From positions 1 to 60,965 of the forward strand of contig MQRK01067526.1 of the NCBI GenBank assembly GCA_001938485.1: a stretch of 60,965 nt of DNA. The letters are read 5' to 3'. Positions 3,935 to 60,965 of the stretch are shown here, one piece after another; position 1 is the stretch's first letter; every line of letters starts with the position of its first letter. The position numbers were made by a program, and so were the translations under genes. The stretch is from Girardia tigrina (taxonomy: Eukaryota). Below the pieces are notes generated by a model. The model was not told the DNA's origin. It saw only the letters and a program-made list of their open reading frames with translations, and searched no databases.

Positions 3935-4109
3935 AATTGAATGTTTTTTTTGTTTTTTTATTTATTGTTTAGAAATATATATTTATATTATTCTTTTATT
4001 TTATATAAATACTTATATTATTCATCAAAGAAGGCACCTAAATTATTAACACATATTTGCTATTTGAGCGGAAGCTTGTTGAGGCCATTTTAATTAAAAT
4101 TTAGTGGAC

Positions 4110-16848: not shown

Positions 16849-17637
16849 TTAATCCGGCTTAAACTGACTAATAATATCATCCAACTGCAGTTGCAGTTGT
16901 TTCTGAATCATTTCATACCAGGCTATATTGTCATCGTAATGTTTCTGCAAGAGATTCTGTCGATTTTCTACGGATTTCTGAATCGCAACACATCGCTTTT
17001 TAGCAGCAATGACAGATTCTCGAAGCACCTTCACTTCTTTCGTTAATCTACCGATCTCCGTCTCGTGTTCGATCTTGGAGGGCTCCGTTAACTCGAACTT
17101 GTGAACACCGTATTTCATGAAGTTATTAGCGATACACTGGTACGAATTGATCGTCATATCCGATTCGTTTTTTACTCTCAATAACAAAAGTCCTCTTTCA
17201 GTGCATTGTATCGTCAGTTGACGAATCAGTTCATCGAAAAGATCCGAATATATTTGTCGTCTAATCGGACAAACAACTTGGTTTTTCGTTTTCCGTTGTC
17301 TTTCTAATGCTTCCACGCAATTTGTCAACAGAACCACATCTGCTCTCGTAGAAGGTATCGGCGACACGTATTGCGTATAGACAGTGTCGTTGAGTTCATA
17401 ACGAATCGGAGGAAGAATGACATTGATGAGAGCTGTCGTTTCTTTTAATGTGAGATAATTTTCGAAATCTTTAAACGTTGCAATAACTTTTCGTTGGGGA
17501 ATATTATCTGGCCGATCGATACAGCGGCCTTTCACTCTCGATTTATCGAGTTCGACAAATTTATTTTCGTCGTATAAAATAGGTTTTTCGTATTGGATTA
17601 ATATCTTTTCTGGATGAATGAGATGAAATTCATCCAT
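16849..17637 (-). CDS. DNALI1: Axonemal dynein light intermediate chain p28/DNALI1-like protein, intronless and divergent
   Basis: Uninterrupted ORF, first ATG at 17637, 262 aa. Motifs ILPP, VSPIPSTRADVV and VCPIRRQIYSDLFDELIRQLTIQCTERGLLLLRVKNE, followed by a coiled-coil tail. AATAAA at 16789-16794 (minus strand). Confidence 0.9.
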   Translation of the reverse strand: MDEFHLIHPEKILIQYEKPILYDENKFVELDKSRVKGRCIDRPDNIPQRKVIATFKDFENYLTLKETTALINVILPPIRYELNDTVYTQYVSPIPSTRADVVLLTNCVEALERQRKTKNQVVCPIRRQIYSDLFDELIRQLTIQCTERGLLLLRVKNESDMTINSYQCIANNFMKYGVHKFELTEPSKIEHETEIGRLTKEVKVLRESVIAAKKRCVAIQKSVENRQNLLQKHYDDNIAWYEMIQKQLQLQLDDIISQFKPD

Positions 17638-17706
17638 GACGAAATTCAATCAATAAATTAAATAAAACTCAATAATCATTATATTAAATTATAGTAATAA
17701 GAATAA

Positions 17707-18990: not shown

Positions 18991-19415
18991 TGATTTTGTT
19001 TTTATTAATGAATTAAAACTATTTTTCATTATCAATTCGATTTTAAATTGTTATTTAAATTTAGTTTTAATAGCAACCGCGAATTTGAATTTTCCAATGA
19101 CGATAACGAATTACATTATTCAGACAAAATCGAACAAGATCTTTTTTTCTTTTTTTGATGACAAAACATTGTTCCTTATTTTTTGTGACATTGAAAAATT
19201 GTGATAAAATCATATGCATTTTCACATCCCACTACTGAAAGACCAATCAAATTTCATTTTCTCTTTTTACAAGCATGATTAAACATAGAAAACACATTCA
19301 TTGGTCTATTCAAATTATTAATCATACATACATGCACATACATTATTCATTTTAATAGGGCATTTTGTTATTTGCTAAGGTCCTTAAATATATAATATTT
19401 GTCTAAAAAGTGAAG

Positions 19416-20760
19416 TGATGTGAAGTCTCTCCAATGTATGTGACGGAACATCCATTACATGTATATTGGTATAATGAGATCCGAATACAATCCTAATGGC
19501 GTTTGAGATTTATTGGCAGTTTTTCAATATTCTTGTTTTATATTCATGTTTTCAATTTTCTGGGAACGGGATATTACTTTTAAACTTATTGCATTATCTA
19601 ACACTTTCAAAATAGAATTTATAAATATTTTAAACCCTTATGAATATGGTACAGTTAACACATAATCAATTCCCAAACTTTTATAATTAGTGTTGCAAAA
19701 TTGCTCTTGATCTTGAACATCTAAAATTTTGGTATTATTTTTTTTGTCAATTAATTTATCAATAGTTTCCTTTTTTAATTTCTCCACTATCGATTTTGAA
19801 TATCCATTATCATATAATGATTTGTTTAATTATTACATCCTTTGTTATGTTATTACATCCTTTATGTGTAGATGAAAGAGCCCATGAGCGAAAAATAAGA
19901 CCTTTAATCATATTTCAACGATATTTGGGTTCACAGAAACTGATCGGTGTTGTATACAACCCCTTGTCAGTTTTCTTTCTGTAAATCTCCGTCTAATAAC
20001 GTCCGTTTTTTCTCTCAATTAATAAATCAAGAAAGGACAATTTCTTATTTCGATAGTGGAGAAATTAACAAAGGAAACTATTGATAAATTAATTGACAAA
20101 AATTATAGTAAAATTTTAAATGTTCAAGATCAAGAGCAATCTGGCAACACTAATGAAAAAAGTTTGGGAATTGGTTATGTGTTAATTTTACCATATTCAT
20201 AGAGGTTTAAAATATTTATAAATTCCATTTTGAAAGTGTTAGATAATGCAATAAGTTTAAAAGTAATATCCCGTACCCAGAAAATTGAAAACATGTTCGC
20301 CAATAAATCTCAAACGCCATTAGGATTGTGTTCGGATCTCATTATACCAATATACATGTAATGGATGTACCGTCACATACATTGGAGAGACTTCACATCA
20401 TCTCTGTAAGAGAATCCAGGAACACAGTCGCAATGAAGATGGAAGTAACATTGCAGGACATAGTAGACATTGTAAAGGAGATATAACTTCACAACAATTT
20501 AAAATTCTGTGCACTCAATTTAAAAATTATTGGGATAGAGTGACACGTTATATATAAGATCTTTGGATCCTAAAATTAACGTTCAAACTGCACTCTCTAC
20601 AACTTTGTTGAGAGTTTTTAAATGATGTACTGATAACATATTGATTGCATAATCATTGACTGTACTTTATAAGTAAATTTCGTTTGAAAAATCATTTGTT
20701 CTGACGATGACGGTTAAACCGTCGAAATTAATAAACTTTGATTGGCTTAAGAACTTTTTA
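19416..20760 (+). mobile_element. 5'-truncated Penelope-like retroelement with an inverted 5' segment
   Basis: Plus strand 20050-20625: linker and GIY-YIG (LIIPIYM/YTCNGCTVTYIGETSHHLCKRIQEH). Minus strand 20049-19416: RT C-terminus (LSFLDLLIERK, IYRKKTDKGLY). Inverted arms 19416-19793/20050-20400. Confidence 0.9.
20698..20736 (+). ncRNA. Minimal type-I hammerhead ribozyme
   Basis: GTT-CTGACGA-T-GACGGT-TAA-ACCGTC-GAAA-TTAA-T-A-AAC: 6-bp stem II, palindromic stem III (ATTAAT), AUA triplet. Lies about 75 nt after the PLE stop. Confidence 0.8.
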
Positions 20761-22518: not shown

Positions 22519-23199
22519 GATTTATATGAGATCCTTGATTTACATTTTAAAATGTTTATTTGTTATTTTGTTATAATAAATAATTTTTTATCTGCTATTA
22601 ATGGAGAATTTATTTTTCTCCTTAATTGCTCTGTCAATTAACGTTTTCTTTCCGATTTTTTTCTTCAATTTCAATCAGATGTGGAGATGAATTGTTAAAT
22701 TAAATCTTTAATTTGTAATTTGATTCAAACTCGATTCTGTATTAAAGGAACAGTAATTATCCTAAAAAAATGTGGAACATTTCATCAAATTATTTTATCT
22801 TTTCAAAAATTTTTAATGACTTTTTTATAGCATTTGAAATATAATATATTTTAACTACATAATTATTGGCTTGAATACATTTATGAATAACACAAACCAA
22901 ATTGTCATTAAAACAGCTCATTGTGGAACTTTAAGGATTTTTATTACTCTTGATTTTTATATTTTAAGATTCTTACATTATGAACTGGAATTTCGGTTAT
23001 TCATTAAATTTATTATCAAAATATGATCAAATTATTTCAATTAAATACAATTTTAAATTATTTCAATAATTATCAATTTTCAATTATTTCACCAAACTAT
23101 TTTAAAACTATTTTGCTTTGACTGTTCCCTACTCTGAGGGTTTCAGAAAATTCCAAAACTATTTTATGAATCAAGATGAAAATAATTAATTAAATTTAA

Positions 23200-23570
23200 A
23201 AATTGTGTCTAGATTATGTAAGATAAAAAGTTTGTTGAGTAGCAAATCTTTCACACAAACTGGTTTATGTTCCAATTTAGTTTATCGGTATAAATGCAAT
23301 GAGTGTGAAGTCAAAAATATCTAAGAGACTTGTCGTCATCTCTGTAAAGTTATTCAGGAATATAATCGACGGAAAAGTGATAGTAATATTGCTTAACATT
23401 AAAAGAACGATTTGAATAGTATAGTTGATATAAGTTATTTTAAGATTTTGTGTTCACAATTTGATAATTGCAGGGAGATGACAATGTGTGAAGCATTGTT
23501 GATCAAATCCTTTGATCCTAAAATCAGTGTACAAACACCTCATTAGCTTTATTGAAAGAATTTTCATGAT
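23200..23570 (+). pseudogene. Degenerate Penelope GIY-YIG fragment
   Basis: GLCSNLVYRYKCNECE, ETCRHLCKVIQEY and MCEALLIKSFDPK. Confidence 0.8.
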
Positions 23571-24780: not shown

Positions 24781-25243
24781 GAAATATTAAATTTATATTA
24801 TGTAAAAACGAATGTTTATTTATTAAAATATACAGTTTGAATATTAATAAAAATTTTCATTTGCTATTTCAACAAAATAATTATTTTAATTTTATTCAAA
24901 AAAAATAATTTTAGTTTTATTAAACTAATTCCATTTTTATATCAAAAAATGATTTTATTCGTGTCACAATTTATAATTATTTTGATAAATTTTTTCAATG
25001 TATTTTGCACAGTAGATTTAAATTCCCGGGAAATTTAAAATAATATATCAGAAACAAAATAAGAAAATTAAAATTTTTGCCTCAGTTGTTATTTTCGTTT
25101 TTTCCGGTTCGCAAATTTTCTATTTTTCAAGCTGAATAATAACAGTCAAATATTTTACGATATATGTTTCACAAAAAAAGACCACTTTGTCTTGAAATCC
25201 ATTTATAAAACAAACCAGTTTCATCATTACGACATTTTCAGTG

Positions 25244-25630
25244 TGTGAGGAATGTTTTGAATTGTGTGTTGATATTGTGCATGTTGTATGTTCATTTGGA
25301 TTGCGCCTCTCCTACACAGATGGATGATTGGTATTTTCTTTGATTCTTCTAATTAAAAATAATTTAATTTAATTTTAAAGTAAAAAGATTTAAAATAATT
25401 TTGGAATGTATTATTTATTTTTTAATGTAATTTAAAATTTTAATATATTAATTTGATATGTTCTTTTTTTAAAAATGTTTAGATTTAATTTCAACCAATT
25501 AAATTCTTTATAATTAATAATTTTTATTAACAGATTTTCACTTATTAGAAAAAAATTAGTATGAACTCAGAAATATTGATTAAGAAAAATGCCAAATAGT
25601 TAATGCGCTTGTAATATTAATAAATGTTTG
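25244..25630 (+). repeat. Copy 6 of TGTGAGGAAT-module family
   Basis: TGTGAGGAAT at 25244. Long near-identity to inverted 1500-1871. ATG at 25589 gives MPNS*CACNINKC. Confidence 0.85.
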
Positions 25631-26539
25631 TTGTATCTCAGTAGAGGGTTTTCGTAAATCATAATCAGATTCTGATAATTTTGGTTCGAATGACTGTTCG
25701 GACGATGATTCCGCTTCACCCCTCAATTTTTGTAGCCAATTAAAACTTGTAAAGACTTCGTTTTCCTTGAAGCTTAAATGATATTCTTTGATATTCGATT
25801 GATTGATTGGGTGTTGAGAATCAATTGGATGTGAAATCGGATCGAATTGATTTATAGAAAAATCTTCACTGGTTAAGACTGCTGGTTGTATCGCGCCGCT
25901 ACTAGATCAAGTTAGATCGTCACTGATTTTAGTTTCATTATTAACTGGAATCACATCTATCACACGAATATAGTGTGGAGAACTGTTGGTGAGTTTCTTG
26001 GCACTGAATATCACAATTACATAATTTCTCCGTCGGCGAATCAAAGCGACAATTCGAAACAAGCTCTTCCACAATTTTGTCGCCAAATATTGTTCGATTG
26101 CCGACTTCAAATCGCACATTGTGCTCGCTTCCAATAGAAATTCGTTGATCGTTCTCCGACGCGGTTTATCGATTTGATTTGATTGAGATTTGATTCTGTT
26201 GTCAGGAATGATCGATGAAGACGCTTTGATTTCATTCGAGTTATTTCTCGATAATTTCCAATCGGATTTATCGAACTCGATTCAACGAGCGAATCATCAC
26301 TGACTAAGTCGACAATAAATTTACTTAATTTTGAATCGATTTTCTTGACCAAATGACCTTCTTTAATATCGAAATGTGCGATTACCATTGGAGAGTTTCT
26401 TTCGATCTTCTCGATTTGGTCGATTTCTTGATGGGCTCTACTCAAATTCAAAATGAATATCTGCACGCCCATATCGAATTTGTTGCTGAAATCTATGACC
26501 TTTTGAGCATGATTTTTTAAATTTAATTCAAAATTTGAA

Positions 26540-27000
26540 TCATCATCACTATTTATTGTTTTGGCCAATTCATAAAAAGTTGGTAAATCATTTATATTCA
26601 TTATGAAATCAGGATTCTCAAGTGATATAAGATCATTATCTAAAGGTACTCCATAAAATTTTAATTTAGAGAGATTTTTTAATTTTGATTAGAGACCTTT
26701 TCCATCTATGTATTTATTACGACAAGACAAACAGTCCGGTACAAATATCAAATGATATTCATCACAGAATTTCTTATTGATCACAGATTCGGCAATATCA
26801 ATCATTTTCATTGATGCTTTGATAAACATTATTATCGATTTATATTTATTCGTTTTCTTGCAGATCTGAATCCGTAATAGAGGCTAATGATTTAATTAAT
26901 TTCGCTTTGAAGACAATTTTTAATGATCCAATATTCGTAAACGGAAAATCAATTTTTTCGTTTTTATTTAAACTTATTGGAATAAAATACTAATAAGCGT
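26540..27000 (-). pseudogene. VPS33: Vps33-like (Sec1/Munc18 family) N-terminal fragment
   Basis: In frame with and upstream of ORF 26107-26601: IIMFIKASMKMIDIAESVINKKFCDEYHLIFVPDCLSCRNKYIDGKGL*SKLKNLSKLKFYGVPLDNDLISLENPDF...DLPTFYELAK. This resembles Vps33 IIFFVRP.L..MD.IA...FHILFVP...L...G....LIPFD.DLLSME. In-frame TAA at 26689-26691. Confidence 0.7.
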
Positions 27001-31594: not shown

Positions 31595-31972
31595 AGTTTG
31601 CCAACAACACACACTATTTAACATAAATAAATTTTTCTTGATCAATATATTTCTGAATTCATACTAATTTTTTTAATAAATGAAAAAGTTTATTAATAAT
31701 TATTAATAATAAAGATTCTAATTGGTTAAAATTAAATCTAAACATTTTATAAAAAGTACCAATTAAATTAATATATTAAATTATAAATTACATTAAAAAT
31801 TTAATAATACATTCGAAAATTATTTTAAATCTTTTTACTTTAAAATTAAATTATTTTTATTAGTAGGAATCAAAGAAAATACCAATCATCCATCTTGGTA
31901 GGAGAGACACAATCCGAATCAACGTACAACATGCACAAAATAAAACAACAAACAATACAAACATTCCTCACA
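31595..31972 (-). repeat. Copy 7 of TGTGAGGAAT-module family
   Basis: TGTGAGGAATG at 31972. ATG at 31624 gives MLNSVCC. Confidence 0.8.
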
Positions 31973-32199
31973 TGTTTAATATTTGAGTTATATAAAAAAG
32001 ATAAATAAATAAATCCTTGATTGACAAAACTGTCATTGTAATTATCGAAAAAGTGTTTCTTGCAAAAATAATCCAAAGCAAATCACAAAAAAAATTCCTG
32101 CTCCTATCGAGTACATACAAATTGATGAAAAGCATTCTTTTCGGAAAGCCTTCTGTTTCCGTAAATTGGTGGAAACAAATCATCTTTGTCTTTCTTCGA

Positions 32200-35100
32200 T
32201 AACGGTGTATTCAGGGTTGCTCTGCTCTTTGATCGGACGCCGGACGATATAATTATCTAGGGATTACACAGCTGCAAGTGAAGTGTCTCAGTGTTCTGCA
32301 CCTCATCTATTGATTGAGTCGTGTCGATCGACTTAGACCGCTGTTCAGCAGCGTACCCCTGATCATTGGTCCTACTTAATAAGCCCGTCAGCACCTGTAT
32401 TTAATCATCGGAACTGAGAACCGTATGAGGATCGTTAGATGTCGAAGGAGCTTCTATGTTTCTTACCGCTCGACTACAAGATGTTTTAAGAATCTTTCGA
32501 TAATATGGAATCCTGTAATCAGTTGTAATTATTTAAAATAACCTCGTTTGGTGGATCAAATGCGTTCCAGACACTGTTCATCGCAGAGTAGATATCTGCT
32601 TCGTTTTTCTATGCAATTTGGCGCCAAATCATGAAGCGCCCCGGACCGAAGTTCACCGTGATGAGAAACTTTGCCACATTGATGTGTGCTACATCCACCG
32701 TAATTCTAGTTCATAATTTTTTCACTTCCAGCTCGCCCCACTCCCCTGGATTGGTGATGGGTCAATTGACGCGCACAGTTCACACTATTGTATCACAGCT
32801 TTTATCTGATCCTTTAATACTTTATCCGATCCCCAAAGTTTTCTCGCTGAGAATGCTGAACGTCTCACTCCGAAGTGATGTATTTTGTGGAGCTGTTTAG
32901 GACAGTGAACTAATTCCTGCTGAACCCCGAAAGACGATTCAGCAGTCACCGCTGGTTCTCTCGCCAGTGCTACCAGGTATTTGGTATTCGAGTCAGAAAA
33001 TGCGCTCTGTTTTCTTCCGATCGGACTAGCGTCACTATGACACACCTCTTCTCTTCTTCCACAATTTGTTGAACCAAGCCAACTCTTCGCCTAATCAAGA
33101 TTCCACTAAGTGCTTGAGATCTAATTAGCTCATGTACCTATATTACCGATGAGAGCCATTTACTGATTGTTGCCGAATCAGTTAAAAATTCCAGTTAAGC
33201 ACCCTGACAGCGGCGTCAAGTTCGGCTAGGATAATGTGATTTATATCGTCCTTCGGCCGCATCCAGAAAGCGTCTTCTACGATTACTCCGCCAATCTCGA
33301 CGCAAATTCCGATCGCAATGGAGCTTGCGTCGCACCACACACTCTCCTTTTCGCTATGGGACACTTCCATATCGCTACTGACGGGATCTTCTGTTTTGAC
33401 TCTGCGCGCCGAATGTGCAATTTGCGGGGCAACCATTGTATCCCGTTCGCCGTTGCTAGCTAGCTTTTTGATTATGCTGCACGCCGGTTAAAGCCACTCA
33501 CGGACCGGTTAATGACCCGCCCGGTGACTGTTTCATGCAAATATTTCACGGCGAGTGATATGATTTGGGACTGGAGAGAACGCCCACGTCGCGCCGCCAC
33601 TTTTAACCGACCATTTGCGCTATCTTTTACTGCTCATACTAGCACCCGGCTACCATTTATCGGCATTGGGTCTTTTGCTTCTAGATCAAAACTCTGCAGC
33701 ACCACCATTAACCGATCCACCAGCATATCGGCCATATTGACCGTGTTAACATCGTAATATGCGTCGGTGTTTTCCCGTACGATTGGATCCCATTCCAGGA
33801 CGTGCAATAATATTTTCTGCATGATTTTGGACAATGTTTAGGCTGAAACCGAGCCTGGTTAAGTACCAAGATTTTTTCTTGTGTTTTACCAACTCGTACG
33901 CCACAAAGATCAGTCGAACTTTATCTGAAGATGCGCTCTCCTTAAATCAACAATAACAAGATTTTGACCTATTGGACGCCATTTTTTCAATTTTCGGCGC
34001 AAACCAAACTTTCAGTAGTGTGACTAGAAACCAACTCATTGATGTTCTGATAGTCGAGTACCGCCGAATTTTTCCTTTTAACTTTTGTAGCACTGTCATT
34101 ATCGGCAGGGTCAGTTGGAGGTTGCTTTCACACTCTACCAACCATCCCCTGGACTTCTAGTCCTCAAATTCGGCGCTCACACCGTCTTCATGTGCTTTGG
34201 CCGATGCATATTCTGATACACTGCCGCGAACTGATAGTGCCATCCATCTTTCCATCGCCATGTTACTGACCAAGACGATCCGTTAAATACCATGGTCAAG
34301 TCTTGAATGAAAACCTCAGTTGGAACTGCTCCATTTACCGTACTAGTTTTAGAACACAGTCGATTATCTGTGTTGCTCGCCGGAACAGCTACGGCGGCCT
34401 AGCATGGTGCTCCCCGACTGTTCTTCGACTCGCTTCGTTCTAAATGAGATTTACTACTCGCATTTACTCCAAATCTGACATTTCCCCCCGTAACCACTAC
34501 ATTCACTCCACTCAGTGACTGTATTGCGCCCATTCCTAATATAATGTCTGTCAAAATCGGTTTTAAACACCGAACAAACAGAACCCAGTATTTCAACGGG
34601 TACCCCATTACTTCGAATTCAACCTAGGCTTCTTGATATACCCCTGCTTGGCAAAACACTGTCTGCAGTTTTTCAGATGCTTGCTGCACTTAATCCGGCT
34701 GCACGAGTCGCTGCTCCATCATTGTTACAGAGAATCCAGTGTCGATCAGTGCCCTTAAACACCGCAACCAAACTAAGACATCAATCAGGGGTAACATCAA
34801 CAGCTCACAGGTACCCTCCCACACAGAAGAAAGGGCCTGTTGATCTTTTCCCGATTTAAATTTTGACTGCGGGCATGCCACACAGAACTGATCCGGTATG
34901 CCTCATATGAAGCACGGTCTGGGTCTTGGAGTCGGTGATGAGCCTGTTTTCGCCTCGGACTTCGTTCTGCCACCTCGTTGCAGGTGACCCGCTGGTTGCA
35001 CTTGAAGCACCGCTTCCGATCAACATCACCATTGTCATTCGATGCCATGGCCGCCACCGTTCCAGTTACTGGCTCGACTGGATAACTTGTGCCCGTGTTG

Positions 35101-35623
35101 ATATAGAAGAGCGACAAAGCTATTGAGATCCTGTCACGCAGGGTAATCTCTCTCTTCCCAGTCTCCGACGCCAAGAATATCGATGTTTTGGCTAGAAACG
35201 CATGCTTGCAGGTATTGTTCCTGAGGCTCCCGCGCCACGTAGATTGCTGTTACGAGTCGTTGCAGGACTGCCATAAATTCCTCAAACACTTCCAGAGAGC
35301 TGGACCTATACATGCGACAGTGCGGCCTTCACTAATTCGAAGTTCTTTTGGTCTTCGATAGTTAGTTCTGCAAATAAATAAAAGGCTCTGCCGTCTAGAA
35401 GCATTGGTAGAGCTCCATCTTGCCACTTTACATACTGACGCTGCGGCTTCCAATTTTCAGCACCAAATCCCAAAGTCACCATGTCCGTCGAACATTCGTA
35501 CGGCGTCTGTGAATTTCGCACGCTTCATGCCGCGATTGCTTGTGGCAACTGAAATTAAAAAAAATTGAAAATTGAAGAAGCACTGCACGAAAAGCTTTAT
35601 TTAAAATAATTCTGAATCTTACA
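32200..35623 (-). mobile_element. Decayed Gypsy/Ty3-type LTR retrotransposon
   Basis: GC-richer block, in order: gag (LPMLLDGRAFYLFAELTIEDQKNFELVKAAL), Zn-knuckle remnant (KRCFKCNQ), aspartic protease (RALIDTGFSVT), RT remnants, then RNase H (VWCDASSIAIG...HIILAELDAAV). Possible short TGT...ACA LTR remnant with AATAAA at 35541-35623. The second LTR was not found. Confidence 0.85.
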
Positions 35624-38801: not shown

Positions 38802-40067
38802 TTTGGTTGTTCGGAAAGTCATTTCGTTTTATTGGTTTAAAGTAAAAAGACGAATAAATATTTTATTGAAATACATATTGACCATTGTGGTCCAATACCT
38901 TCTTCCATCTTCCTGGCGGTGACATGATTCCACATTCATAAAATATTTGTTCTTTGCTGCTAAAAAACTTTTCCAGGTGATTTTCAACATCTTCATTTGA
39001 TCCAAAAGTGTTACCATCTAAATAATTTTGTAGAGACCGGAACAAATGATAATCAGAAGGTGTGAGGTCTGGAGAATATGGTAGGTGAGGCATAATGTTC
39101 CATCCAAGCTGTAAAAGCTTTTGGCGAGTTACCAAAGTTGTATGAGGTCTGGCATTATCTTGGTGAAACACTACACCTTTTCTATTGATCAATTCTGGCC
39201 TTTTGTGTTTAAGGGATTCATTTAATTTGTCCAGCTGATGACAGTAGACGTCCGAATTGATCGTAGTTTTGTCCAGAAGAAGCTCATAAAATATGATTCC
39301 TTTGAAATCCCACCAAACAGATAGCATCATTTTTTTTTATTAATTTCAGCTTTCAAAGTGCTTTGAGCAGGTTGATCTTTTTTACTCCAAGATCTCTTGC
39401 ATTTTGCATTATTGTAGACTACCCATTTCTCATCTCCAGTGACGATGCGCTTCAAAAATGGATCATTTTCTTGGTGTTTGAGAAGCATATCGCAGATGTC
39501 TAAACGACAGCATAAATTTCGTTCGGTAAGATTATGAGAAATCCATGTGTCGAGTTTTGATGTAAAACCTAGACGCTTCAAATGATCATGGACGGTCGAA
39601 TTAGATAAATGTAATGTCTGGGCAATTTCGCGAGTTGTTATTCGCCGGTTTGAATCAATTAATACCTTTATTATGTCTTCGTCGACATCAATGAGCCTTC
39701 CGGAACGTGAAGAATCTTCAACATCAAAATTTCCGGTTCTAAATTTTTTAAACCAGTTTTGGCATTGGCGTTCTGTCAACACATCTCCTCCATACACTTC
39801 GCATAATTTTCTTCTTCCTTGTACAGCATTTTTACCTTTTCGGAAGTAAAAATGTAATGCCGTAAATGCTGATTCTTGCTTTCCATCTTTGATAGGTCAA
39901 AATCAAATATAAATGTTTTTAATTATTCCAAAATTTTCCAAATCTAACCTTGATTACCAACTGCTAAAATAAATAATATAGTCAATGATTATTAACGATT
40001 ATTAATATAAAAAAATACATTTAAAACAAGTATTAAAAAAAACGAAATGACTTTCCGAACAACCCAA
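38802..40067 (-). mobile_element. Near full-length mariner (1266 bp)
   Basis: About 30-bp TIRs TT(T/G)GGTTGTTCGGAAAGTCATTTCGTTTTT with TA flanks. Contains the transposase pseudogene listed next. Confidence 0.95.
38863..39886 (-). pseudogene. Mariner D,D34D transposase with two frameshifts
   Basis: ATG at 39886 (MESKNQHLRH). Motifs IVTGDEKW, WISHNL, HQDNARPH and YSPDLTPSDY. Frameshifts near 39855 and in a homopolymer at about 39330-39340. Confidence 0.92.
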
Positions 40068-48984: not shown

Positions 48985-50697
48985 CCAAATTTATAATACA
49001 GTTAAATTTAGAAAATTGTAAAATAAAACTCCTTAAAAAGAACTGTTTTTAATATTCTGAAATTTCAAAAAAAGCGTAAATTGAAAAATGCAACAATTTT
49101 TATTGAAATAAATTTTGTTTGATGACTCAGAAATTGATGAAGTTTGCGCTGCAAACAGCTTTTCTAACACATATAATAAGTGATATTTTCCAGTAAATTA
49201 AAATTAGATTTCGGTTAACTTGATTTCTATTTCCATTTAAAGTTCCTCTAAAAATAATTGTAGAAAATATATTAGTTATTTCAAACAAAATAATCCCAGA
49301 CAATTCATATGATAATTTGTTTTTCTGAAAGAAAATTTTTTTATCTTAATTGAATAAATGCAATTTAATTTACAGGATATACAATAAATATAAAATAGTT
49401 TATTTGATCTTGCAGGAAGAAAATGATATCAAATAATACAAAAAAATTATGAAAACAAACAGTAAATTTTTTTTATTTTTTCGGAGATATTTTTGTAAAA
49501 ATGAATAATAAAATGTATTTCCAAGAAATAGATAAATTAATAAATGAACATATTCATGAGCTATTCATAAGAAAAAATGCGAATCTTTCAAATAATCAAA
49601 AGCGCCATTTGAATATGGAAGATAAATAAATTTAATTAGATCAGATCGGACGTCATCGTCGATTACGACTACTCGACCCAATCTCATCAATCGACACTCA
49701 GAACGATCATCGTTTCAGTCGTATCAGCATGTCGTCGAGCGCCATCAACCCTGATCGGCAGATATACGGGTACATATCATTAAATTTGGATAAATGAACG
49801 TGGATCGGACGAGTTTTATATGAACAAACGCGGGATGAACGAACCGCAAACCGTTTTAAAAGCAAAACACCTTATCACAAGTCATTCAACACGAACTTAT
49901 ATAAACAGTAAGGAGTAAAAAAATAATATTAAAAAGTAATCATGGAAAAAAATAGGAATTTCTTTTTTTGTGATGATAGACAAAATCATTTTGTTTCTTA
50001 GAATTATTAATTTAGACATTAAAAATACAATAAATTTTAAATAATCAAATGATTTAAAATTCTTAATTAATTATTATCAATAAGTGATTAAGAAAAAAAA
50101 TGTATAAACAATACACAAAAAATTGAAAAATTACAAAAAAATAATTAAATTTTTATTATTAATTCGTAATTTTATAAAATTTATGAAAGACATAAAAATA
50201 AATATTAATAAATGTAAAAAAAGTAACTTAAATATTAATTGATATTTTTGAATTTTGTCAATTTTTAATTTAAATTTTTTTTAATATATAAATTTTTAAT
50301 ATTTTTAATATTTTGAAAATTAATATGATAAATATTTTATAGTAATTTAAGAACTATTTTATTATTTTTTTATTTATATTTAATTTTTTAAAATAATAAT
50401 TTTCTTTATTTTTTAATAATGTTTTATAGATCAAATTATTGATAATTTGTGGAATTAATTAACTTTAGTTTATATTTTCCATTGGTTTATATAATTAATT
50501 TTTCATTATTTCTGTTATAATAATTTTATTTTGAATTGATTTATTCGAATATTATATACAGATGTTTCAGAAGGATTTAAAAAAACATACAATTTTGTAT
50601 TAAAAAAATATTTTGTATATATATATAACATTAAGATTTAATGGCAATTTATTTGTAAAGAAAATGAAGAACAAACGCCATTTAAAAAGTTTTTTAT

Positions 50698-50740
50698 TTC
50701 TCAAAACATGTTTCGCCATTACGGCATCATCAGTTGTGAA
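50698..50740 (-). ncRNA. Minimal type-I hammerhead ribozyme
   Basis: TTCACAA-CTGATGA-T-GCC-GTAAT-GGC-GAAA-CATG-T-T-TTGAGAA: stem I with 6 of 7 pairs, palindromic stem III, GUU triplet. Confidence 0.85.
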
Positions 50741-50853
50741 GTAAATTTCAAATTACAAGTCATTTATATGGCACATTGACTATTACGCAATTAATCTTTT
50801 TTTTAATTAAAATTAAAAGATTTTAATATGATTGGATAATTCACTTTGAACAT

Positions 50854-51435
50854 TTAAGCATGGTTTAAATGCTTTATTAATAATGCCTCAGTGACTATCC
50901 TCTCATGATATGTATCAAAATGTTTCTTCAAAACCTTAAATTCAGTTTCATAGTTAACTTTATCTCTATTTCTGCATTTTTTAATGTGATCTAGAATCGA
51001 GCTATTCCTACTCAATTGGGTGTGTTCAGCTATTCTAATGCGGAGATGACGATTTGTTTCTCCAATGTACAAGGATTCACACTTGTGACATTTGAATTGA
51101 TATACTAGATTAGCTTGGACACCCGATGGAGTTTTTGATTTATTTGAGAAATATCTCGATAGTTTATGAGTTATGAAGATCACCCGCAAATTAAAACCCA
51201 AAGGAACCTTTTTCATTCGGCCTTTCCTCAAATCAGACGCGCCTTCAGAAAATGGTAATTTTAAATTTATTGTTTTTATTACATTACTACTGTCATTATT
51301 TATAATGTTTTCATTTTTATTATTAGATTTTTCACGAATTGAGTCAATTGTATTTTTTATCAAATTATTTAAATAATTTTTATTGTACCCATTATTTTCT
51401 AACCTGCTTTTAAGATCAACAATACCCTTATCCAC
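50854..51435 (-). CDS. Penelope linker plus GIY-YIG endonuclease (partial pol)
   Basis: LENNGY, NLVYQFKCHKCESLYIGETNRHLRIRIAEH, SSILDHIKKC and ERIVTEALLIK. Confidence 0.9.
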   Translation of the reverse strand: MDKGIVDLKSRLENNGYNKNYLNNLIKNTIDSIREKSNNKNENIINNDSSNVIKTINLKLPFSEGASDLRKGRMKKVPLGFNLRVIFITHKLSRYFSNKSKTPSGVQANLVYQFKCHKCESLYIGETNRHLRIRIAEHTQLSRNSSILDHIKKCRNRDKVNYETEFKVLKKHFDTYHERIVTEALLIKHLNHA

Positions 51436-51645
51436 ACCACAATACGTAGAAGATAAATTTCATATTCTGTGAATTAATCCTTTCACCATATTTTTATTGT
51501 ACTTGGGATCACAGAAACTCATAGGATTATTGTATAAACCCGTGTCAGTACTCTTTCGAAATAATTCAGTTTCATAGCCCTTTGATTTTCTTTCAATTAA
51601 TACATCCAAAAATGAAATCTTGTCCCCTGATTCGATTTCACTGGT

Positions 51646-51870
51646 TTGGAGAAAAAATTCAATTTTTTTGAAGGAAACATGCCTTTATTTTACACTAGGT
51701 ATGTTGATGATATCTTCTTGATTTTTGAAAATAAAAACCTTATAGATAATTTTTTACAATTTATGAATCAACTTCATCCAAATATGAGATTTACCAGTGA
51801 AATCAAATCAGGGGACAAGATTTCATTTTTGGATGTATTAATTGAAAGAAAATCGAAGGGCTATGAAACT
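51646..51870 (+). pseudogene. Penelope reverse transcriptase fragment (inverted segment)
   Basis: FYTRYVDDIFLIF, MNQLHPNMRFTSE, ISFLDVLI. Confidence 0.9.
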
Positions 51871-52679
51871 TTTAAAATGGCGTTTGTTATTCATTTTATA
51901 TATATAAAGTTTTAACGAAAATTGTTCATATAATTATATATAAATATATATATTAATAATTAAGTCTTTGTTTGAACGAATTAAGAGTTGCATTGTGGAT
52001 ACGAAAACAAAGATATCGATTTTCCGAATTATTATTGAAATTTGTTATTTGTTATTAAATTTTAACATTGAGATTTCATTCGAACTATGCCCGTTGTAGA
52101 ACTTCTCGGTGATAACAACGAAAGATATCCAGCGAAAAATAATGATTAGGTTTTTTCTGATGTGATGGAGCTTGCGTGCAATGCCGCAGGCCGAGAAAGT
52201 AAAACAGCCCTCTTTAGGGTCACAATTTGTGATTGGACACGGACATTTATATGGACAATAAAAAATATATATTGTTAGGTTCTTGATAATTCAAATCACG
52301 AATTGAAATATTTAAGACTTTTATTTAATAGCAAAAATAATATATATTTTTTAAATAAAATTCTGAAGAACACTTTTCATTTTTTCTCGCGCAAATCATC
52401 TAAACATTAAAGTAATAAATTTTAAATATAGATAATAATTTATTATTTATTTAATTTTAAAATATATTATTACTTCAATTTTTATTAAAATTCTTACCTC
52501 AAACCTCATTGAGTTTTTTTAATTTTTAATTATTTTTTCAAATTAAATACCTTTCTTTATATCAAACATTAATTTAGTCTTAGATTTTAAAATTTTATAT
52601 AATCCAACATCTAATTCTTTTTTATTTAAAAGTTTAAAAGCGAGTCTGTTAATTAATTGAAATTAGCTGGTTCGTTTTC

Positions 52680-52825
52680 TTGGAAGGAGAAAGACTAAGA
52701 GGAAGACCAAAGAGACAATTAACAGACAACTTAAAAAATGGAAAGGATTGAACATACAAAAAAAAGTCTATAAAAAGAGAGATATGTCGAAGGTTCACCA
52801 ACGGCCGAATGACTAAGGTCAAAAA
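52680..52825 (+). mobile_element. RTE-like non-LTR retrotransposon 3' end fragment
   Basis: LEGERLRGRPKRQLTDNLKKW resembles the GxRxRGRPxxxWxDxI C-terminal motif. Confidence 0.55.
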
Positions 52826-53369
52826 GAAATATTTGCTGTATAAATGAGAATATAATATTGTGATTTAGTTTGATGACGATGTTTGATCCGTCAAAATTAA
52901 TAACAATGTATTATCATGAACGTTTTTGTATTTTAATTTTCAATTAAAATTTACTACTTGCAATTGGAAAGATAATTTACACAAACAAATTTTATTGAGA
53001 AAACCAAAAACTAATTTGTATTTGGGGAAAAGTCATCAATTATCTATGTTCCATATGAATTTGAGTTTTGATTTAAATATTTGCTTACAAATAACTATGT
53101 TTAGAAGTTGTAATTTATTTGAATCATTTTTAAGTTAATGCTGCCAAAGTAATCATAATTCATAAATAGAATGTTTATTTCTTTAAAAAAACTTTTTTAT
53201 TTGTTCTTGTTAAAAGTACTATATTATTGTTAAAAAGCAACCAGGGATCATTTTAATCATTATTGTTTTCCTTAAACAAATGCGTCTCACCATTAAAACG
53301 TATTCAGTGTAATGAAAAAAATGAAAAAAGTAAAATCTATATAGTAGAAAAAAAATATTGCATCATACG

Positions 53370-54045
53370 TCAGCGCTTTGCAGATTACTGTACTGAGCAA
53401 TAGTCAATAATGAAGAGTCTTGAAAATGCTTTACTCACATTGAAGTTTAAAACTCTCCTTCCGTGCTGTAGCGACGTACTTTTAAAAGTAAAATCGTCTT
53501 AGAAAACACTCACTCCTTACAGCACGCTTCCAGAGAGGATTGTTTCTTTATACAACTTGAACTTTTCAGCCCATCGCATAAGCACCGCAGGTGAGACAGC
53601 CAACGCTCACATGATGATGGCAATGAATGGCAAGGAGATCTGCCTGTTTGATCATCGCAGTGCTGTTCTTGCAGATGAAAGAAAAATGAGAAAGAAAGCA
53701 AACCCTGGATATTTAATCAGAAAAAGACTTTGTTGTTATTTATTTTTTTTAAAAAGTAAAATGTGTTGAAGTGTTATGTAATATAACTCGTGTTGAACTG
53801 TTGATAAAATTTTATTGGTCGGGTCACTTGTGTATTTTTCTTTTTTCAAAATATATGTGTTATTATAGTACTGTAGCATGGTTTCTTTTAGAATAAATGT
53901 TTTTTTTGAATAAATGTTTTCTTTAACTATTTAGTTAAACAGTTTTTTCTGTGTTTGATAATGTACTTGACATTTCCATTGTGGTCCGCCGTTGTATTTC
54001 TGTTGTATCAAGTAGACCGCACAGCAAAAAGGTTTGACACCACTG
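53370..54045 (+). mobile_element. hAT (Charlie-like) terminal remnant
   Basis: Ends GTGGTCCGC...GTAGACCGC...AAAAAGGTTTGACACCACTG, followed by CTCTAG. The left boundary is uncertain. Confidence 0.5.
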
Positions 54046-54257
54046 CTCTAGTCCCATTTAGATATACATAACAAAAAACATCACAGTCAAGGAAAAGGTT
54101 GAATGATTACACAAAAGAACATCTTTCTATTATTTAACAGAATATATATCACTCATAGTCATATATATCCATGGTATTAATATGTTCACCATAATCATTT
54201 ATGACTTCAATAAATTGGATACTAATATTGGTCATAAGGTAGATAAACTAGATAGAT

Positions 54258-55542
54258 CAAGGGCTAGCCTAGGCTAGCCTAGAATAGCCTAGGCCCCCTA
54301 TAGCACATTATTCAACATTTTCCATTGAGAAAGAATACAGTAGTGTACTATTACTAGCCTGGACTAGCCTTGAAAGTGTAAACCATATTGACATGATTTT
54401 GTACCAAAAAGAGAGTTTATTTAGAGAATCAGCAATTCAAAATCCCGCCATGTTCTTTATTTGAAGAATCTTCAATTCAAAATTCAAATTCCCGCCTTGT
54501 GTCTATTTACTACAAGTGATACATTAAAACAAATTCATAAAAAGCTATGTAAATATTTTTTATATCAGTAGACGAGTATTATATACAATATATATTTTCT
54601 ATATGCAAAATCACTTGTAGTAAACTTTTATAGTAAACATCAACTGTTATCATGTAATTGGTTATACGATTTAGGTGTCGTTCATCCGGTCGCTAACCAA
54701 CGCATCAAACTTGATCAAGTCAACAGTATTACGAACGCGGTTACACGACAACCCGTCCCTATATAAATTTATTTTCGAGAAGACTGTTAATAATTTTGGA
54801 CCTGTGTACTTGAGTTAAATACCTTGAGGGCAAGCTGTTGGCAGAAAGAGTACTTATCAGACTGTCATTATAAACGTCAACGGCGAGTGAGATTAGAAAC
54901 TCCAACTTCCGCACGGTACTTTTGATTACCTTTCAGCCAATGGTGATGAGACTGAATATACCACTGCAATTCTCAATCTACATGTCGCACTGCTGCCTTT
55001 TGGAAGATTGAGTGATCTGTGATCTTTTGGTGATCCATGACAGCCTTCACTTTTACAGTTGCATCTGCATGGCGGCCATAAGACCAATAAACAGTGCAAT
55101 TGTGAGCAAACTTGCAAGCTACATTCAGAAACTTTTCACAAGCTCTACATTTCACATAATGTGTTTTACGCTTCCCTTAAGCAGATGCAAACATAAATAC
55201 TTCCAAGCAGTCTCTACTATTTTCTATTTACCATTTTACATTCAATTTACTGTGCTTGTACCATTCCATAGTATTGTGAGAAGTGCTGATAATGAATTCT
55301 TCTGTTGCGAAGGGGCCAATATGTGTAATAGTGGTTCAGCTTTCTGCTAGAACAGCGAAGTTTAAGTCTACTGTTGTTGCAAAAGCATCAGGTTATGATT
55401 AAAAAAAATAAAAAGGTAGTTTTAAAAATCGATTTAAAAAAATGGGGCCCTCAGTCTATCACTTTTGCCATGGACTGGGGGGCATTTTCGGTCACTGGGG
55501 GGGGTCAAATGCTCCCAAGTATATATGTTAAAAAAGGCCCTG
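54258..55542 (-). mobile_element. Decayed hAT-like element with a ZNF862-type zinc-finger remnant
   Basis: Right end reads CAGGGCCTTTTTTAACATATA on the minus strand. Minus-strand W...MKCRACEKF...YG...VKAVMDHQKITDH (CxxC...HxxxxxH). GGCTAGCCTA repeats at the left end. No TSD was confirmed. Confidence 0.5.
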
Positions 55543-56081
55543 ATCTCATAAGGCAGCAACCAGCGACTTGCAGAAAGAACCACAGAATGATATGAACATT
55601 CCACCTCATTTGATAGGAAAATGTTGGGATACATTACAAGATCATTGGACAGAAAAGAAATCAATGAATAAAAATTTTAAATAAATTTTGTGAAATAAAT
55701 TTTGATTAACAACATTCTTATTTTTTTAGTTTATTTAATTTTAACGCAATTTTATATTATTTTTGTATAAACCTATAATTATAAGGTTAATTAGCTTTTT
55801 ATAATTTTATAATTTAGTTTCAATTTAATTTATAGTTTATATAATGTTGCATAAAAAAATTTTAGTGATTACGAAATTTATTGCAACATACAAGACATTA
55901 ATTGCATTATTTATGAACTGGATTGAGAAACCCTATAATGTACACTAAATTTTGATTAAAAATGAACTTTGAGGGACCTAAGTTAGAGTATTTATTAGAT
56001 GGACTTCCTATAAACGTGTAAATTGTACACCCTTTACTTCGATTCCACAATTCATACCCTAATGATGGATAATTCAAATGA

Positions 56082-56500
56082 ACTTTTTAATTTTTATTGG
56101 AAAACATGTTTCGCCACTTTTGTGGTATCTTCATTTCTGTATTTAATTAGAAAGTTATTGTTTATATAAAGATAATCATTACGTCACAGTGTGTTATGTC
56201 AAAATACTCTAATATGATTGGACGAATCACTTTGCACATTTAGACTAGGTTTACAAAACTTTATCAAGAGTGCTTCAGTAATTGTCCTTTCATAATTGTG
56301 ATTAAAGTTACTAATCAAAAGCCGAAAATCATTATCAAATACCCTCCTTTGAGTTCCATGACATTTCACTATGTGGTCCAAAATTGAGCTTTTTCTACTT
56401 GATTGGGTATGTTCTGCAATTCTAGTACGGAGGTGACGATTTGTCTCTCCAATGAAGATGCCACAAAAGTGGCGAAACATGTTTTCCAATAAAAATTTAA
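56082..56500 (-). mobile_element. Short Penelope-like copy (GIY-YIG C-half plus pLTR) bracketed by inverted hammerhead-containing ends
   Basis: IGETNRHLRTRIAEH...ERTITEALLIK...NVQSDSSNHIRVF*. About 50-bp inverted repeat 56085-56135/56451-56500. Both hammerhead copies read ATGAAGA instead of CTGAAGA. Confidence 0.9.
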
Positions 56501-57475
56501 AATTAAAATGGTTTTATTTTTGTTTAATGACTAAATTACCATTTGATTTAAAGAAATTAAACTTTTAAACAGTATTTTATTTTCGAATTCAATATAATAT
56601 TAAAAAAACTTTGATCTGAATCCTGTGAAAATTAGAGCAATGACAATTTAATACATTTTATTTTTAAATTATTCTAATTTTATTGTAATTTAATTATTTT
56701 TAATTTTAATTTAGTATTTACTTTTCTATTTTTTATTCAAAAAACAATCGAAAAATGAAAATCTTTTTCGACATAATCCTATACACCTGCCAGTTTTATT
56801 ACTTTTAATGAATAAAAATAAATAAATAATCAAAGAATTTCGGCACCACAGTGAAATTAAAATGAGAAGATATTCCTAATAAAAACGATTTTCGTTTTTA
56901 ATTTTATTAATTTTTTTAAATTTTTTTAAAAAATAGTTCTAAAATTTTAATTACAACTGCTGAAACCTAATTGATAAAAATTCAATTTTATAATTCCAAA
57001 ATAAATATCATTAAATGTAATGACAATTTTCAAACAAATTCTTTCATTCATTAAAAATAAATAATTAAATTTTCCAAACATTTTTTTAAATAAAAAAAAA
57101 TATAATGAATTATTTTTCAATTTTTTTAAATTAATTTTTGTTACTATAAAAATTTAAATATTTCTAGACAGTGAAATAAAAACAATTTAAAATAATAATA
57201 AAATATTACTAAATATTTTAATTATAATTTTTGTCTCGATTGATTGCCAGCTGAAATGTTGATACCGCAAAGTCAGTGAAAATCGTTTTATTTACCAACA
57301 CAATTAAAACAAACAACATGTGTCCATTATATATATTAAATTTTATTTGCCATAAAATTTTATTTATCTTAATTATATTAAAATACTAATAAGTTGACAT
57401 TTTAATTAATTTATAAGGTTTAATAAGGAAGGTTTAATAATAAAAGAGAATAACGCCATTTTAATTTTTTATTCT

Positions 57476-57516
57476 TTGAAAACATGTCTCACCTTTATGG
57501 CATCATCAGTTTTCAA
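57476..57516 (-). ncRNA. Hammerhead ribozyme variant (GAGA instead of GAAA; probably inactive)
   Basis: TTGAAAA-CTGATGA-T-GCC-ATAAA-GGT-GAGA-CATG-T-T-TTCAA. Confidence 0.65.
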
Positions 57517-57599
57517 TTGTAATCAACTGCTATTGCATATATAGTTAGAAGACCATGACGTCATTCATGTCTTACGTTAACATATTTTAATATGATTGG

Positions 57600-58052
57600 T
57601 ATACCATCTCTTTCAATGGTATTGAGCCTAAGGCTCTTTAGAGGGTCCACCCAAACTAAAGTCCTTAAGGGCCCCCGATAGGCCTCCTACGGGGTCAGTG
57701 TCCTTCTGCCTGCGAGCGACCGGTTTTCCAGTTGCAAAAGACCAGCCATGGAATTTGGTGCCATGGCCATACATACCTTTGGCGGTTACGNNNNNNNNNT
57801 AACATCCTCTGAATGGGCACTGGAAATGTCCTTTTGCTTTTGCATAATTGGCTGGCAATCGGTATTGTCGGTGCGGCGATTCTTCACGAGTGTATGTAGT
57901 GTTGTCTTCTGTCTGGATCATCGGCGTGCCCATAGTTGCTTCCGGTAACTGGGGGTTGGATTGAATTGTTGTCGGCTCTTCCTCTCTCACGATGACCAAA
58001 TTATCTTCTTGCTGGGCGTTTGGTTGTTCTGACTCTTCTCTGTGATTCTGTG
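57600..58052 (-). mobile_element. 453-bp GC-rich insertion encoding a 5'-truncated ORF with a C2H2 zinc finger
   Basis: 8-bp direct repeat ATGATTGG at 57592-57599 and 58053-58060. Removing the insert restores the PLE C-terminus SESSNHIKIC*. The frame is open from the insert edge to TAG at 57628 and contains CPFRGC-x12-HGTKFH. Confidence 0.8.
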
Positions 58053-59064
58053 ATGATTGGATGATTCACTTTACACGTTTAAATTAACTTTCAAAAACTT
58101 AATTAACAGTGCTTCAGTAATTATCCTTTCATATTACTACAATATAATACTTATAATCAAAGTCACTGATTAAAACCCGAAAATTACTTTCATGTTCTTC
58201 CTTAAATTTCCATAGCACTTCAACATGTTTCAACATTCTATTTAATTGAGTATGTTTAGTAATTCTAGTGTGGAGGTAACGATGTCAAGGTTTCACACTT
58301 TTGCCATTTATATTGGTAAACTAGATCAGGTTTCATACAAAATGGTGTTTAGCTTTATAAGAAAAATAGTTGGAGATGTAATTAGTTGGAAATAAAATTT
58401 TAATTTTAACTTCTACTAAAGCACGTTTCTCTAGAACACGTTAGATGTTAAACTCCATTTTCTATGGATTCATCCCTCGATCACATTCCTGTTACACTGG
58501 GGTCTAAAAAAACTATAAGGTTTTCTATATAAACAAATATCCGTTGGTTTTCTGTAGACCACGGTATGTAAAATATTTTTTTTTCTTTTCTATCAAAACA
58601 TCTAAGAACAACATTTTATTTTCAATTTCAAACGTGAAATTAATGTTTGGATGTAAATTATTTAAGAAATGTAGAAAACCAATAATGTCATCCTTATTTT
58701 TAAAAAACAAAAAAGTGTCATCTACCTATCGAGTATAGAAGATTGGTAATTCAGCAGAATAATTACTAATTTTTTATCCAAATTTGGATAGAAAATAAAA
58801 GCCATTAACAGTGTCATGTGTGAAACAGCTACTCCATCAATTTGCATAAACCAATTATCATTAAATAAGAAAGGAACATTTTTGTTTTATATTTAAGTAA
58901 GTATTTTAATGCTTTAGTGCTCATTGACTTTGATTTATCATCAACCAAGTAATTCAAAGATTTACACAAAGTTAAATTATTTCAACTTATCATTTGATTC
59001 TAATTGAATAGTGGTGCAATGATTTACACTGTAAAAAGAAACCATAATTTAGATATTGATGCAA

Positions 59065-59320
59065 CAAATTGGAGAGACATGTCGTCATCTCTGTAAACGA
59101 ATCCAAGAACATAATCAAAAAGATGGTGAGAGTTAAATTGCTCAACACAGAAAAAAATGTTTAGATAATGTAGTATATTTAAATTTGTGAAATATTGTGT
59201 TCACAATTTGATAATTACCGGAAGATAGTGATGTATGAACCACTGATGATTAATGATCTTGATGCAAAAATCAACGCGCAAACACCATCGTATATTTTTT
59301 TGAAAATATTCTGAGGTTTT
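59065..59320 (+). pseudogene. Degenerate Penelope GIY-YIG fragment (same subfamily as the 20380 and 23320 pieces)
   Basis: IGETCRHLCKRIQEHN and MYEPLMI...KINAQT. Confidence 0.8.
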
Positions 59321-60923
59321 AGTGATTACGAAATGATTACGTTAACAGTTCATCGATATATAAACATCAGTTTATCAGTATTTATAAAAATATATTGTAG
59401 TGGTCTATTTATTATTTATTTATATATTATAAATATAAATAAAATATAAAAGTATATATTTAAATTTTAATTGATATTTTGTTTGTTAATTTACCAAAAG
59501 GATTTATGTAATTTATTCAAAAATTGTTGTTATGTAATTTATCGCTTGAAATACTGAAACATGAATAATGGGTTGGAAATTGATAATAGAAAAATTTATG
59601 TTGTTTAGGAACATTCCACAATCAAGAACTCTATCAGATTTGTTCAAATAGCTTTATCTCTCTTCCCTGTTAATAATCAGATCTCAATCTTATCTTCAAT
59701 TTTCTATCAAACGGATCAATTATCCTCCACATAAACTACGATAATCAAAATCCATTTCCAAAGTAACAATGATTAATAAGTTTCTTCCTAAAGACCTTTC
59801 TTGTTTATAGTGATCCTTATTCATATTTGTCTTTTTCATCCGTCCCTTATTTGTTGTTTTTTTCGTTAATATAGTTTATTTATATCTATTTGATTTAATA
59901 ATATTGCTGGGAGCCTTGTTGAGTTCATAAAATTTTTGAATTTACAATCTTATCAAATTAATAATTAAACAATTACATTCCGTAATAGATATAGATATTG
60001 TTACAGATATGTTAAAATAAGATTTTCAGAAAAAAATGTAAAAATTAATTTATGTAAGAAATAAAATTAATTTTACGGTAGGTTTATTAAAAGATTTATG
60101 CAAAGATTTATTATAAAGTAAAAACGTTAATTTCAATTTTGATGAAAATATTTAATTGAAATAAAATAAAAAGTAATATAAAGTTTAATATTTTATTTAC
60201 GAAATGAAAATAAACTAAACTATTTTTGTAACTTATTTTACACGACTAAATCGAAGTAAATTAAAAATGTAATTATAATTTTAATTTAGAAATTGTAATT
60301 GGAATCAAAATATAATTGTAAAACAATTAAATCGACTTAAATGAAAATGCGATTTTAATTTTATTTTGGAAAACGTAATTATTAATGGAAATATAATTTT
60401 ATTTTATGTAAAAAGGGGTAATTTAAAAGTTGTTAAATTAAACGAAATTGCGATTTTAAATTCTATTTTCAAAATATTATTTTATTAAATCCAAAGTAAT
60501 TTTTAAAACTATTATGAAAACGAAATAAAAAATGCTATTGTATAGAATTGGGAAATTTAATTGAGAAGCAGGTAAATTTAAATGTACAATAAAATTGAAA
60601 TTTAATAAAAGACGCAATAAAATCTTTGTGACAAAATTTTAATTCATTTTATAATTTTTTATTAAAAAAAGTATAGAATTTTAATTCGTAAAAAATACAA
60701 TAACCATATTTATATTTATATCCATTCTTATTTATAATGGTTTGTGTAAAAAAAGTGTAAAAGTTCGTCGAAAATATTTGTTTAAAAAACTCAAATTGAG
60801 GTAAAAATAAAGTTTTTTGTTCATGACAACGTGTTTTGATCAAGAACCCAATAAATATTATTTTTATATTTACAACAAAGAAAGTGAGTTCATTGCAACA
60901 TTATTTTTCAGTTAGCTAAATTT

Positions 60924-60965
<42 letters not shown>

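Follow-up and report, generated by a model that had tools for sequence, protein, structure and literature searches.

The 453-bp segment at 57600-58052 of Girardia tigrina contig MQRK01067526.1 is very probably the 5′-truncated 3′ end of a high-copy LINE encoding an AP endonuclease (APE), a reverse transcriptase (RT) and three C2H2 zinc fingers. The element is likely of the RTE type, and ordinary target-primed reverse transcription likely placed it at a non-specific site within a dead Penelope-like element (PLE). The window analysed here is the whole 60,965-nt stretch of this contig. The locus itself is ordinary, a truncated LINE copy nested in older repeats like very many others, and the unusual traits of the element are only two: the three zinc fingers at the end of its protein and a predicted folded tail common to distant families.

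The segment lies between two exact copies of ATGATTGG, a duplication that is not extendable to 9 nt, and has a GC content of 0.49 versus ~0.28 across the window. A single ATGATTGG is found in two PLE paralogs within the window (at 56214 and 50828), to which both flanks align continuously, and exactly 461 bp are skipped by three contigs of sequencing run X1, which represent the empty site. Because the paralogs carry one ATGATTGG and the X1 contigs skip exactly this length, the 8-bp target-site duplication (TSD) is real, and the empty sites hold one copy. The host flanks join into the decayed GIY-YIG end of a PLE on the minus strand, whose paralogs match PF01541 weakly (E 0.006-0.03). The insert has the orientation of its host, sits 4-5 codons ahead of the PLE stop, carries neither TIR nor poly(A), and has a minus-strand frame open from the segment edge. 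The exact duplication, the open frame, the shared orientation in the last host codons and the lack of TIR and poly(A) had been noted in a sequence-only reading of the window and were seen again.

Contigs from four of the 24 listed sequencing runs (X1, X3, X11 and X15) were aligned to the window. Loose ends lie on either side, before 57604 as well as behind 58049, and delimit an element-derived part of 446 bp (57604-58049), while 57600-57603 and 58050-58052 are absent from other copies. The loose end behind 58049 is present in all four runs, where contigs continue into the LINE body with sequence that reads, by eye against the longer protein P0001, as the end of finger 2, in agreement with the 5′ truncation proposed earlier. 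The features are collected in Table 1.

Table 1. Features of the insert and its host, in window coordinates
Feature	Position	Strand	Basis
Host: final PLE codons and 3′ flank	57440..57599	-	Paralog alignment
TSD copy, element's 3′ side (ATGATTGG)	57592..57599		Paralogs; empty-site joints skipping 461 bp
Filler, 4 nt, in place of the family's last ~10 nt	57600..57603	-	Loose ends before 57604, 65 X1 contigs
Terminal stem-loop (5 bp, one G-U; predicted)	57604..57620	-	Fold prediction; loose ends before 57604 and 57615
Majority-form 3′ UTR (61 of ~70 nt present), 2-3 hairpins predicted	57604..57664	-	tblastn, fold; variants 57629-57630 in a predicted loop
3′ tail common to at least four families, overlapping the last ORF codons (PVGGLSGG)	57604..57696	-	X11 records 9-13, X15 records 16-20
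C-terminal ~127 codons of APE-RT ORF (P0001 residues 1042-1168): end of finger 2, low-complexity linker, finger 3, basic tail	57665..58049	-	119/127 identical, tblastn
Third C2H2 finger, C-x4-C-x12-H-x4-H, then conserved WS..TG.P motif	57746..57821	-	Sequence pattern
9-N gap, length correct	57791..57799		P0001 alignment and bridging contigs
Filler, 3 nt, at the 5′ truncation point	58050..58052	-	Loose end behind 58049, four runs
TSD copy, element's 5′ side	58053..58060		Exact repeat
Host: GIY-YIG coding end of the decayed PLE, upstream of the insert	58053..58340	-	Stops; identity to two paralogs 77% and 64%

A search for longer proteins returned three matches among 117 candidates, the best being P0001 (1,169 aa). 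The insert is identical to the last 128 positions of this protein at 119 of 127 residues (94%) and carries the low-complexity linker and third finger of a P0001-type protein. P0001 contains Exo_endo_phos_2 (89-233), RVT_1 (517-761) and C2H2 matches, with its three fingers at 974, 1023 and 1119, and its best PDB match is L1 ORF2p. No RNase H match was found in P0001-P0003 nor in 30 relatives. A Pfam search with the insert alone gave nothing, and Rfam gave nothing credible over 50000-60965 (three weak matches). An AP endonuclease N-terminal to the RT and a 5′-truncated copy with a TSD are the characters of an APE-type non-LTR element. The sequence-only reading had advised a search for longer 5′ versions with upstream domains, and P0001, with its endonuclease and RT, is such a version. 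It proposed a target-primed retroelement of which the segment would be the 3′ end, and this is borne out by the 94% match to a LINE ORF end and the true TSD. It was also right to sense an atypical C-terminus and 3′ end, which proved to be three fingers and a predicted folded tail without visible repeat, but the clade that it did not recognise is that of an APE and RT LINE nesting among RTE-type RTs.

The N gap inside the insert had been taken to be of the right length from its C-x4-C-x12-H spacing, and this is so: P0001 has four residues there and aligns without gap, and contigs of three runs (X11 record 14, X15 record 21, X3 record 28) bridge it with 0 gaps. The insert copy is young: only one difference in 378 nt separates it from the collapsed family contig. 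It is scarcely conceivable that the insert derives instead from a retroposed host zinc-finger RNA or a DNA transposon, or that the assembly is misjoined at the N gap. Poly(A) is indeed absent, the N gap does fall within the insert, and an 8-bp TSD, a length typically seen in hAT and P elements too, would suit a DNA transposon. However, the 94% match to a LINE ORF rules out both a host exon and the retroposed non-polyadenylated RNA suggested previously, the same match and the lack of TIRs dispose of a DNA transposon, and crossing of the gap in three runs without indel contradicts a misjoin.

At its 3′ end this copy is clipped, as other copies extend ~10 nt further, with 65 X1 contigs running ~10 nt past 57604 before variable flank is reached. 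A 7-bp hairpin next to the TSD had been described, and the copy with its 4-nt filler does show it, but the outer three pairs derive from the filler because other copies run ~10 nt further. The family stem has 5 bp, including one G-U pair, and is kept across three loop variants. The outer pairs may be due to chance, or possibly to a short false start primed at the 5′ arm of the hairpin, where CCA could pair with target TGG. The tail following the stop, previously put at 27 nt, also had to be redrawn. The relatives have one extra C at 57671, and the last codons are shifted in the window copy. Among the 18 relatives with this C-terminus in P0001-P0021, the end is of the GGLS(G/R)GP type in 15 and the longer one of the window in three. 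The usual family stop (57667-57665) lies 12 codons earlier than that of the window frame, and as 15 of 18 proteins stop there the 3′ UTR is ~70 nt long.

The family 3′ end is known only from the 30-nt consensuses of the loose ends listed, besides which there are 351 more. A 3′ simple-sequence repeat is frequent in RTE elements, though not universal; neither a 3′ microsatellite nor poly(A) was seen in this copy or in the listed consensuses of 30 nt each. One 93-nt contig, present in two runs (X11 record 9, X15 record 16), has a different terminal loop beyond 57615 and in both runs is longer than usual at the 3′ end by 26 nt of constant sequence, the visible start of which resembles the start of the tail. 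This extension may mark a subfamily with a longer end, a duplication of the tail, or target DNA that is shared.

A plausible course of insertion would start with the endonuclease nicking the plus strand after ATGATTGG. The RT would then have added 4 nt of filler, engaged the RNA ~10 nt before the usual end, copied 446 nt and stopped, and a second nick 8 nt away would have generated the TSD. The conserved, predicted-folded 3′ tail would most likely be the cis signal recognised by the protein, as in a stringent-type LINE.

This tail is shared between families. Over 57633-57696, contigs of X11 and X15 differ from the window by 5-6 substitutions and 2-3 gaps; beyond this stretch they diverge, their diverging parts encoding, by eye, the C-termini of P0175 and P0284, both of which have 52% protein identity to P0001. 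P0003 (81% to P0001) joins the shared tail at 57711. The four families (P0001, P0003, P0175 and P0284) share a ~90% identical tail over the last codons, an identity possibly inflated in the last 47 nt by merging in the contig graph. Compared with shuffled sequences, the fold of the 101-nt tail reaches a z of -2.86 (1 of 200 shuffles as good) and that of the last 37 nt -3.84, while the result for the 69-nt UTR by itself is marginal (z -1.75, equalled by 11 of 200 shuffles), with two folds in competition. The conserved 3′ stem-loop of stringent LINEs has its counterpart here in a predicted stem that is kept while the loop varies, within a tail found in four families. By analogy with the stringent L2 elements ZfL2-1 and ZfL2-2, the conserved 3′ stem-loop of which is likely an RNA handle for the ORF2 protein (PMC4176376), the tail is likely a handle for its own protein. 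In ZfL2-1 and ZfL2-2 each family has its own loop, to which the EN-RT linker binds (PMC4176376), whereas here the predicted loop varies within one host and most of the tail is common to distant families. A more far-reaching reading is conceivable, albeit rather unlikely: in this RTE lineage, families at 52% protein identity would keep a near-invariant, repeat-less and predicted-folded tail over their last codons, which the added C2H2 fingers would read in place of the EN-RT linker, and would cross-mobilise or swap tails, with priming that needs neither poly(A) nor microsatellite.

Judging by its sequence, the family very likely belongs to RTE. P0001 served as the query in collecting homologues, a choice biased towards finger-bearing matches, and the set was reduced for redundancy to 255 RT sequences; the trees contain no labelled RTE, Vingi or RTEX references, RTE labels being assigned partly by eye against the PMC2887409 supplement. 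In FastTree, P0001 falls among RTE-type sequences, at a node of 229 of the 255 tips (0.97) that has no labelled reference. The motif layout of P0001 agrees by eye with the RTE proteins published in PMC2887409. A single ORF and the lack of RNase H are in keeping with RTE, the ORF count coming from the relative L001 and not from 5′ DNA of the window family itself. L001 (26% identity) has one ORF 50 nt after an HDV-like ribozyme match at 93-171 (drz-agam-1, 26.7 bits versus a gathering threshold of 37, E 0.0026). Such ribozymes are common in the 5′ UTR of RTE elements and not exclusive to them. A 5′ HDV-like ribozyme is described for L1Tc (PMC6765202).

The other candidate for placement, which leaves the LINE biology unchanged and makes the lineage a separate clade beside RTE or a Vingi/Ingi-like one, is improbable. 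Within the RTE-type node P0001 belongs to a 43-tip clade supported at 0.99, in which 36 of 42 proteins carry at least two post-RT fingers, while among the proteins outside it only 5 of 191 do. Of the five clade proteins with zero fingers, four are cut short. This distinctness speaks for a clade of its own, as does an RT identity of only ~30-37% to named neighbours. Vingi and Ingi elements have a single ORF with APE, RT and C-terminal CCHH fingers, and the multi-finger C-terminus, three in P0001, resembles that of Vingi. The group nevertheless nests inside the RTE-like sequences, with the Rex3-type P0033 (identified by eye) branching further out; here RT groups with RTE-type sequences, in a tree without Vingi reference, and no RNase H match is present. 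In an IQ-TREE analysis of a 51-sequence subset, the multi-finger group joins single-finger moth relatives (SH-aLRT 99.6), but support for the group as a whole drops to 61 and P0073 leaves it. Other members of the finger-bearing RTE branch (P0050, P0130) also have 2-3 fingers. Vingi and Ingi are named in PMC5753468 and PMC13708176.

Compared with RTE LINEs (BovB, Rex3 and lepidopteran BmRTE), as presented in PMC2887409 and PMC13295347, the element has the same single APE and RT ORF of ~1,150 aa, the same RT and post-RT motif layout, dispersed insertion, many 3′-only copies, a short 3′ UTR and an 8-bp TSD within the 6-12 bp given for RTE (PMC2887409). It differs in its three C-terminal C2H2 fingers, in having no visible 3′ microsatellite and in a tail that overlaps the last codons and is common to families at 52% protein identity. 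The Tn-TA target signature described for a subset of RTE (PMC13295347) is likewise absent at this one site, where the TSD starts with C in the element sense and no T stretch lies 10 nt upstream. In the description of RTE-2_OV from Octopus vulgaris (PMC9115989), which calls a C2H2 finger relatively rare in RTE, the element is likewise an RTE with C2H2, in an ORF of 1,109 aa, but has one finger and UTRs of ~600 nt versus three fingers and a 3′ UTR of ~70 nt here. The sources seen for 36 of the 42 clade proteins are metagenomes, Logan contigs, bacterial bins and unnamed NCBI records, none coming from a named eukaryote annotation. The multi-finger RTE branch is poorly sampled and seen only in unannotated assemblies. 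No description of such a lineage was found in the accessible literature, a scope that leaves Repbase, Dfam and most subscription papers outside.

In X1, summed contig depth is 1e5-6e5 over the body and ~2e6 over the tail, while the junction contigs have depths of 79.5 and 41.8, as for a single locus. Contig depth is not a copy number, but a difference as large as three to four orders of magnitude is consistent with copies in the thousands. It had been raised that the element might target PLEs, and that other copies should be looked for in PLE GIY-YIG ends. Targeting of these gene ends would be in line with the shared orientation a few codons before the host stop and with the ATGATTGG site being kept in 3 of 3 aligned PLE copies, yet it is very unlikely. 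Junctions at single-locus depth, against at least 1e5 for the body, are not what is expected of a site-specific element with most copies in one target. The loose flanks agree at 0.56 and 0.60 over 30 columns, 10-19 of which are element; under an assumed element/flank split, this implies a flank agreement of ~0.34-0.39 per column versus 0.40 for random window sequence. The flanks of other copies are therefore no more alike than random AT-rich DNA, and with a TSD of 8 bp they point to no sequence-specific target. The site is moreover empty in three X1 contigs and two window paralogs, and with six more PLE remnants in 61 kb a chance landing is unremarkable. A weak preference for PLEs may exist.

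Near-identical sequence also occurs under other organism labels: 16 of the 24 listed runs, covering four other labels and metagenomes, hold 0.26-0.30 of the words, about the share of the insert, and three of these 16 were aligned to the window. Two of them, X11 and X15 (labels C and D), contain the body with one difference, which would suit horizontal transfer as in BovB. This explanation has a low probability, as X11 and X15 reach a depth of only 9-12 with only the high-copy parts assembled and show the same sister families, X11 also holds a piece of the host PLE, no unique 3′ flank is seen among those listed, and in X3 (label B) 29 of 30 bins are covered, the PLE flank among them. Traces of DNA or RNA from the same host, or from a related one, fit these runs better than horizontal transfer.

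Searches for further family DNA gave few loci. The C-terminal alignment yielded 0 confirmed of 169 stretches in metagenome contigs and 0 of 45 in genome contigs, a 20-nt tail motif had 0 matches in both sets, the clade alignment gave 0 of 18 in viral contigs, and the protein atlas returned only generic C2H2 clusters. L001 is the only clear clade member among 57 genome-contig loci, to none of which the window tail matches significantly; the L001 contig has only 18 nt beyond the stop. A 10-bp hairpin is predicted across the L001 stop codon (3690-3714). The L001 contig was placed in a bacterial genome bin and is likely eukaryotic contamination. Another 56 contigs in bacterial genomes or bins match the non-LTR RT query (L002-L057), many of them short and likely of the same origin.

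RTE elements are used as RNA-delivered gene writers (PMC13708176), and how an RTE protein picks its RNA and primes has been little tested. An abundant and young family with intact ORFs, a ~70-nt 3′ UTR and sister families bearing the same tail offers a comparison for the tail-reading domain and for the need of a 3′ repeat. Members of the family also appear as eukaryotic contamination in bacterial genome bins.

Several other features were observed in the window. Penelope-like GIY-YIG remnants lie at 19412-20545, 23118-23516, 50857-51459, 56259-56471 and 59068-59160, with inverted arms nearby at 56069-56135/56451-56517 and 19416-19793/20050-20400. An unclassified ~370-bp repeat occurs in five copies that are 70-92% alike (1497-1871, 3568-3946, 11535-11856, 25237-25628 and 31612-31984) and has an internal 28-nt palindrome, with no TIR found. 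On the minus strand, a decayed GC-rich segment (0.42-0.47; 32400-35600) looks by eye like a Gypsy-type LTR element, with a relevant Pfam match in 0 of 7 fragments, and a pair of overlapping ORFs (124 and 193 aa; 25907-26688) has no Pfam match. The same strand carries a mariner transposase split over two frames (38863-39896; HTH_48, Transposase_1) and an uninterrupted, divergent ORF for axonemal dynein light chain p28 (16849-17649; PF10211, E 1e-44), the nearest match of which is at 60% and the best named matches at ~34%.
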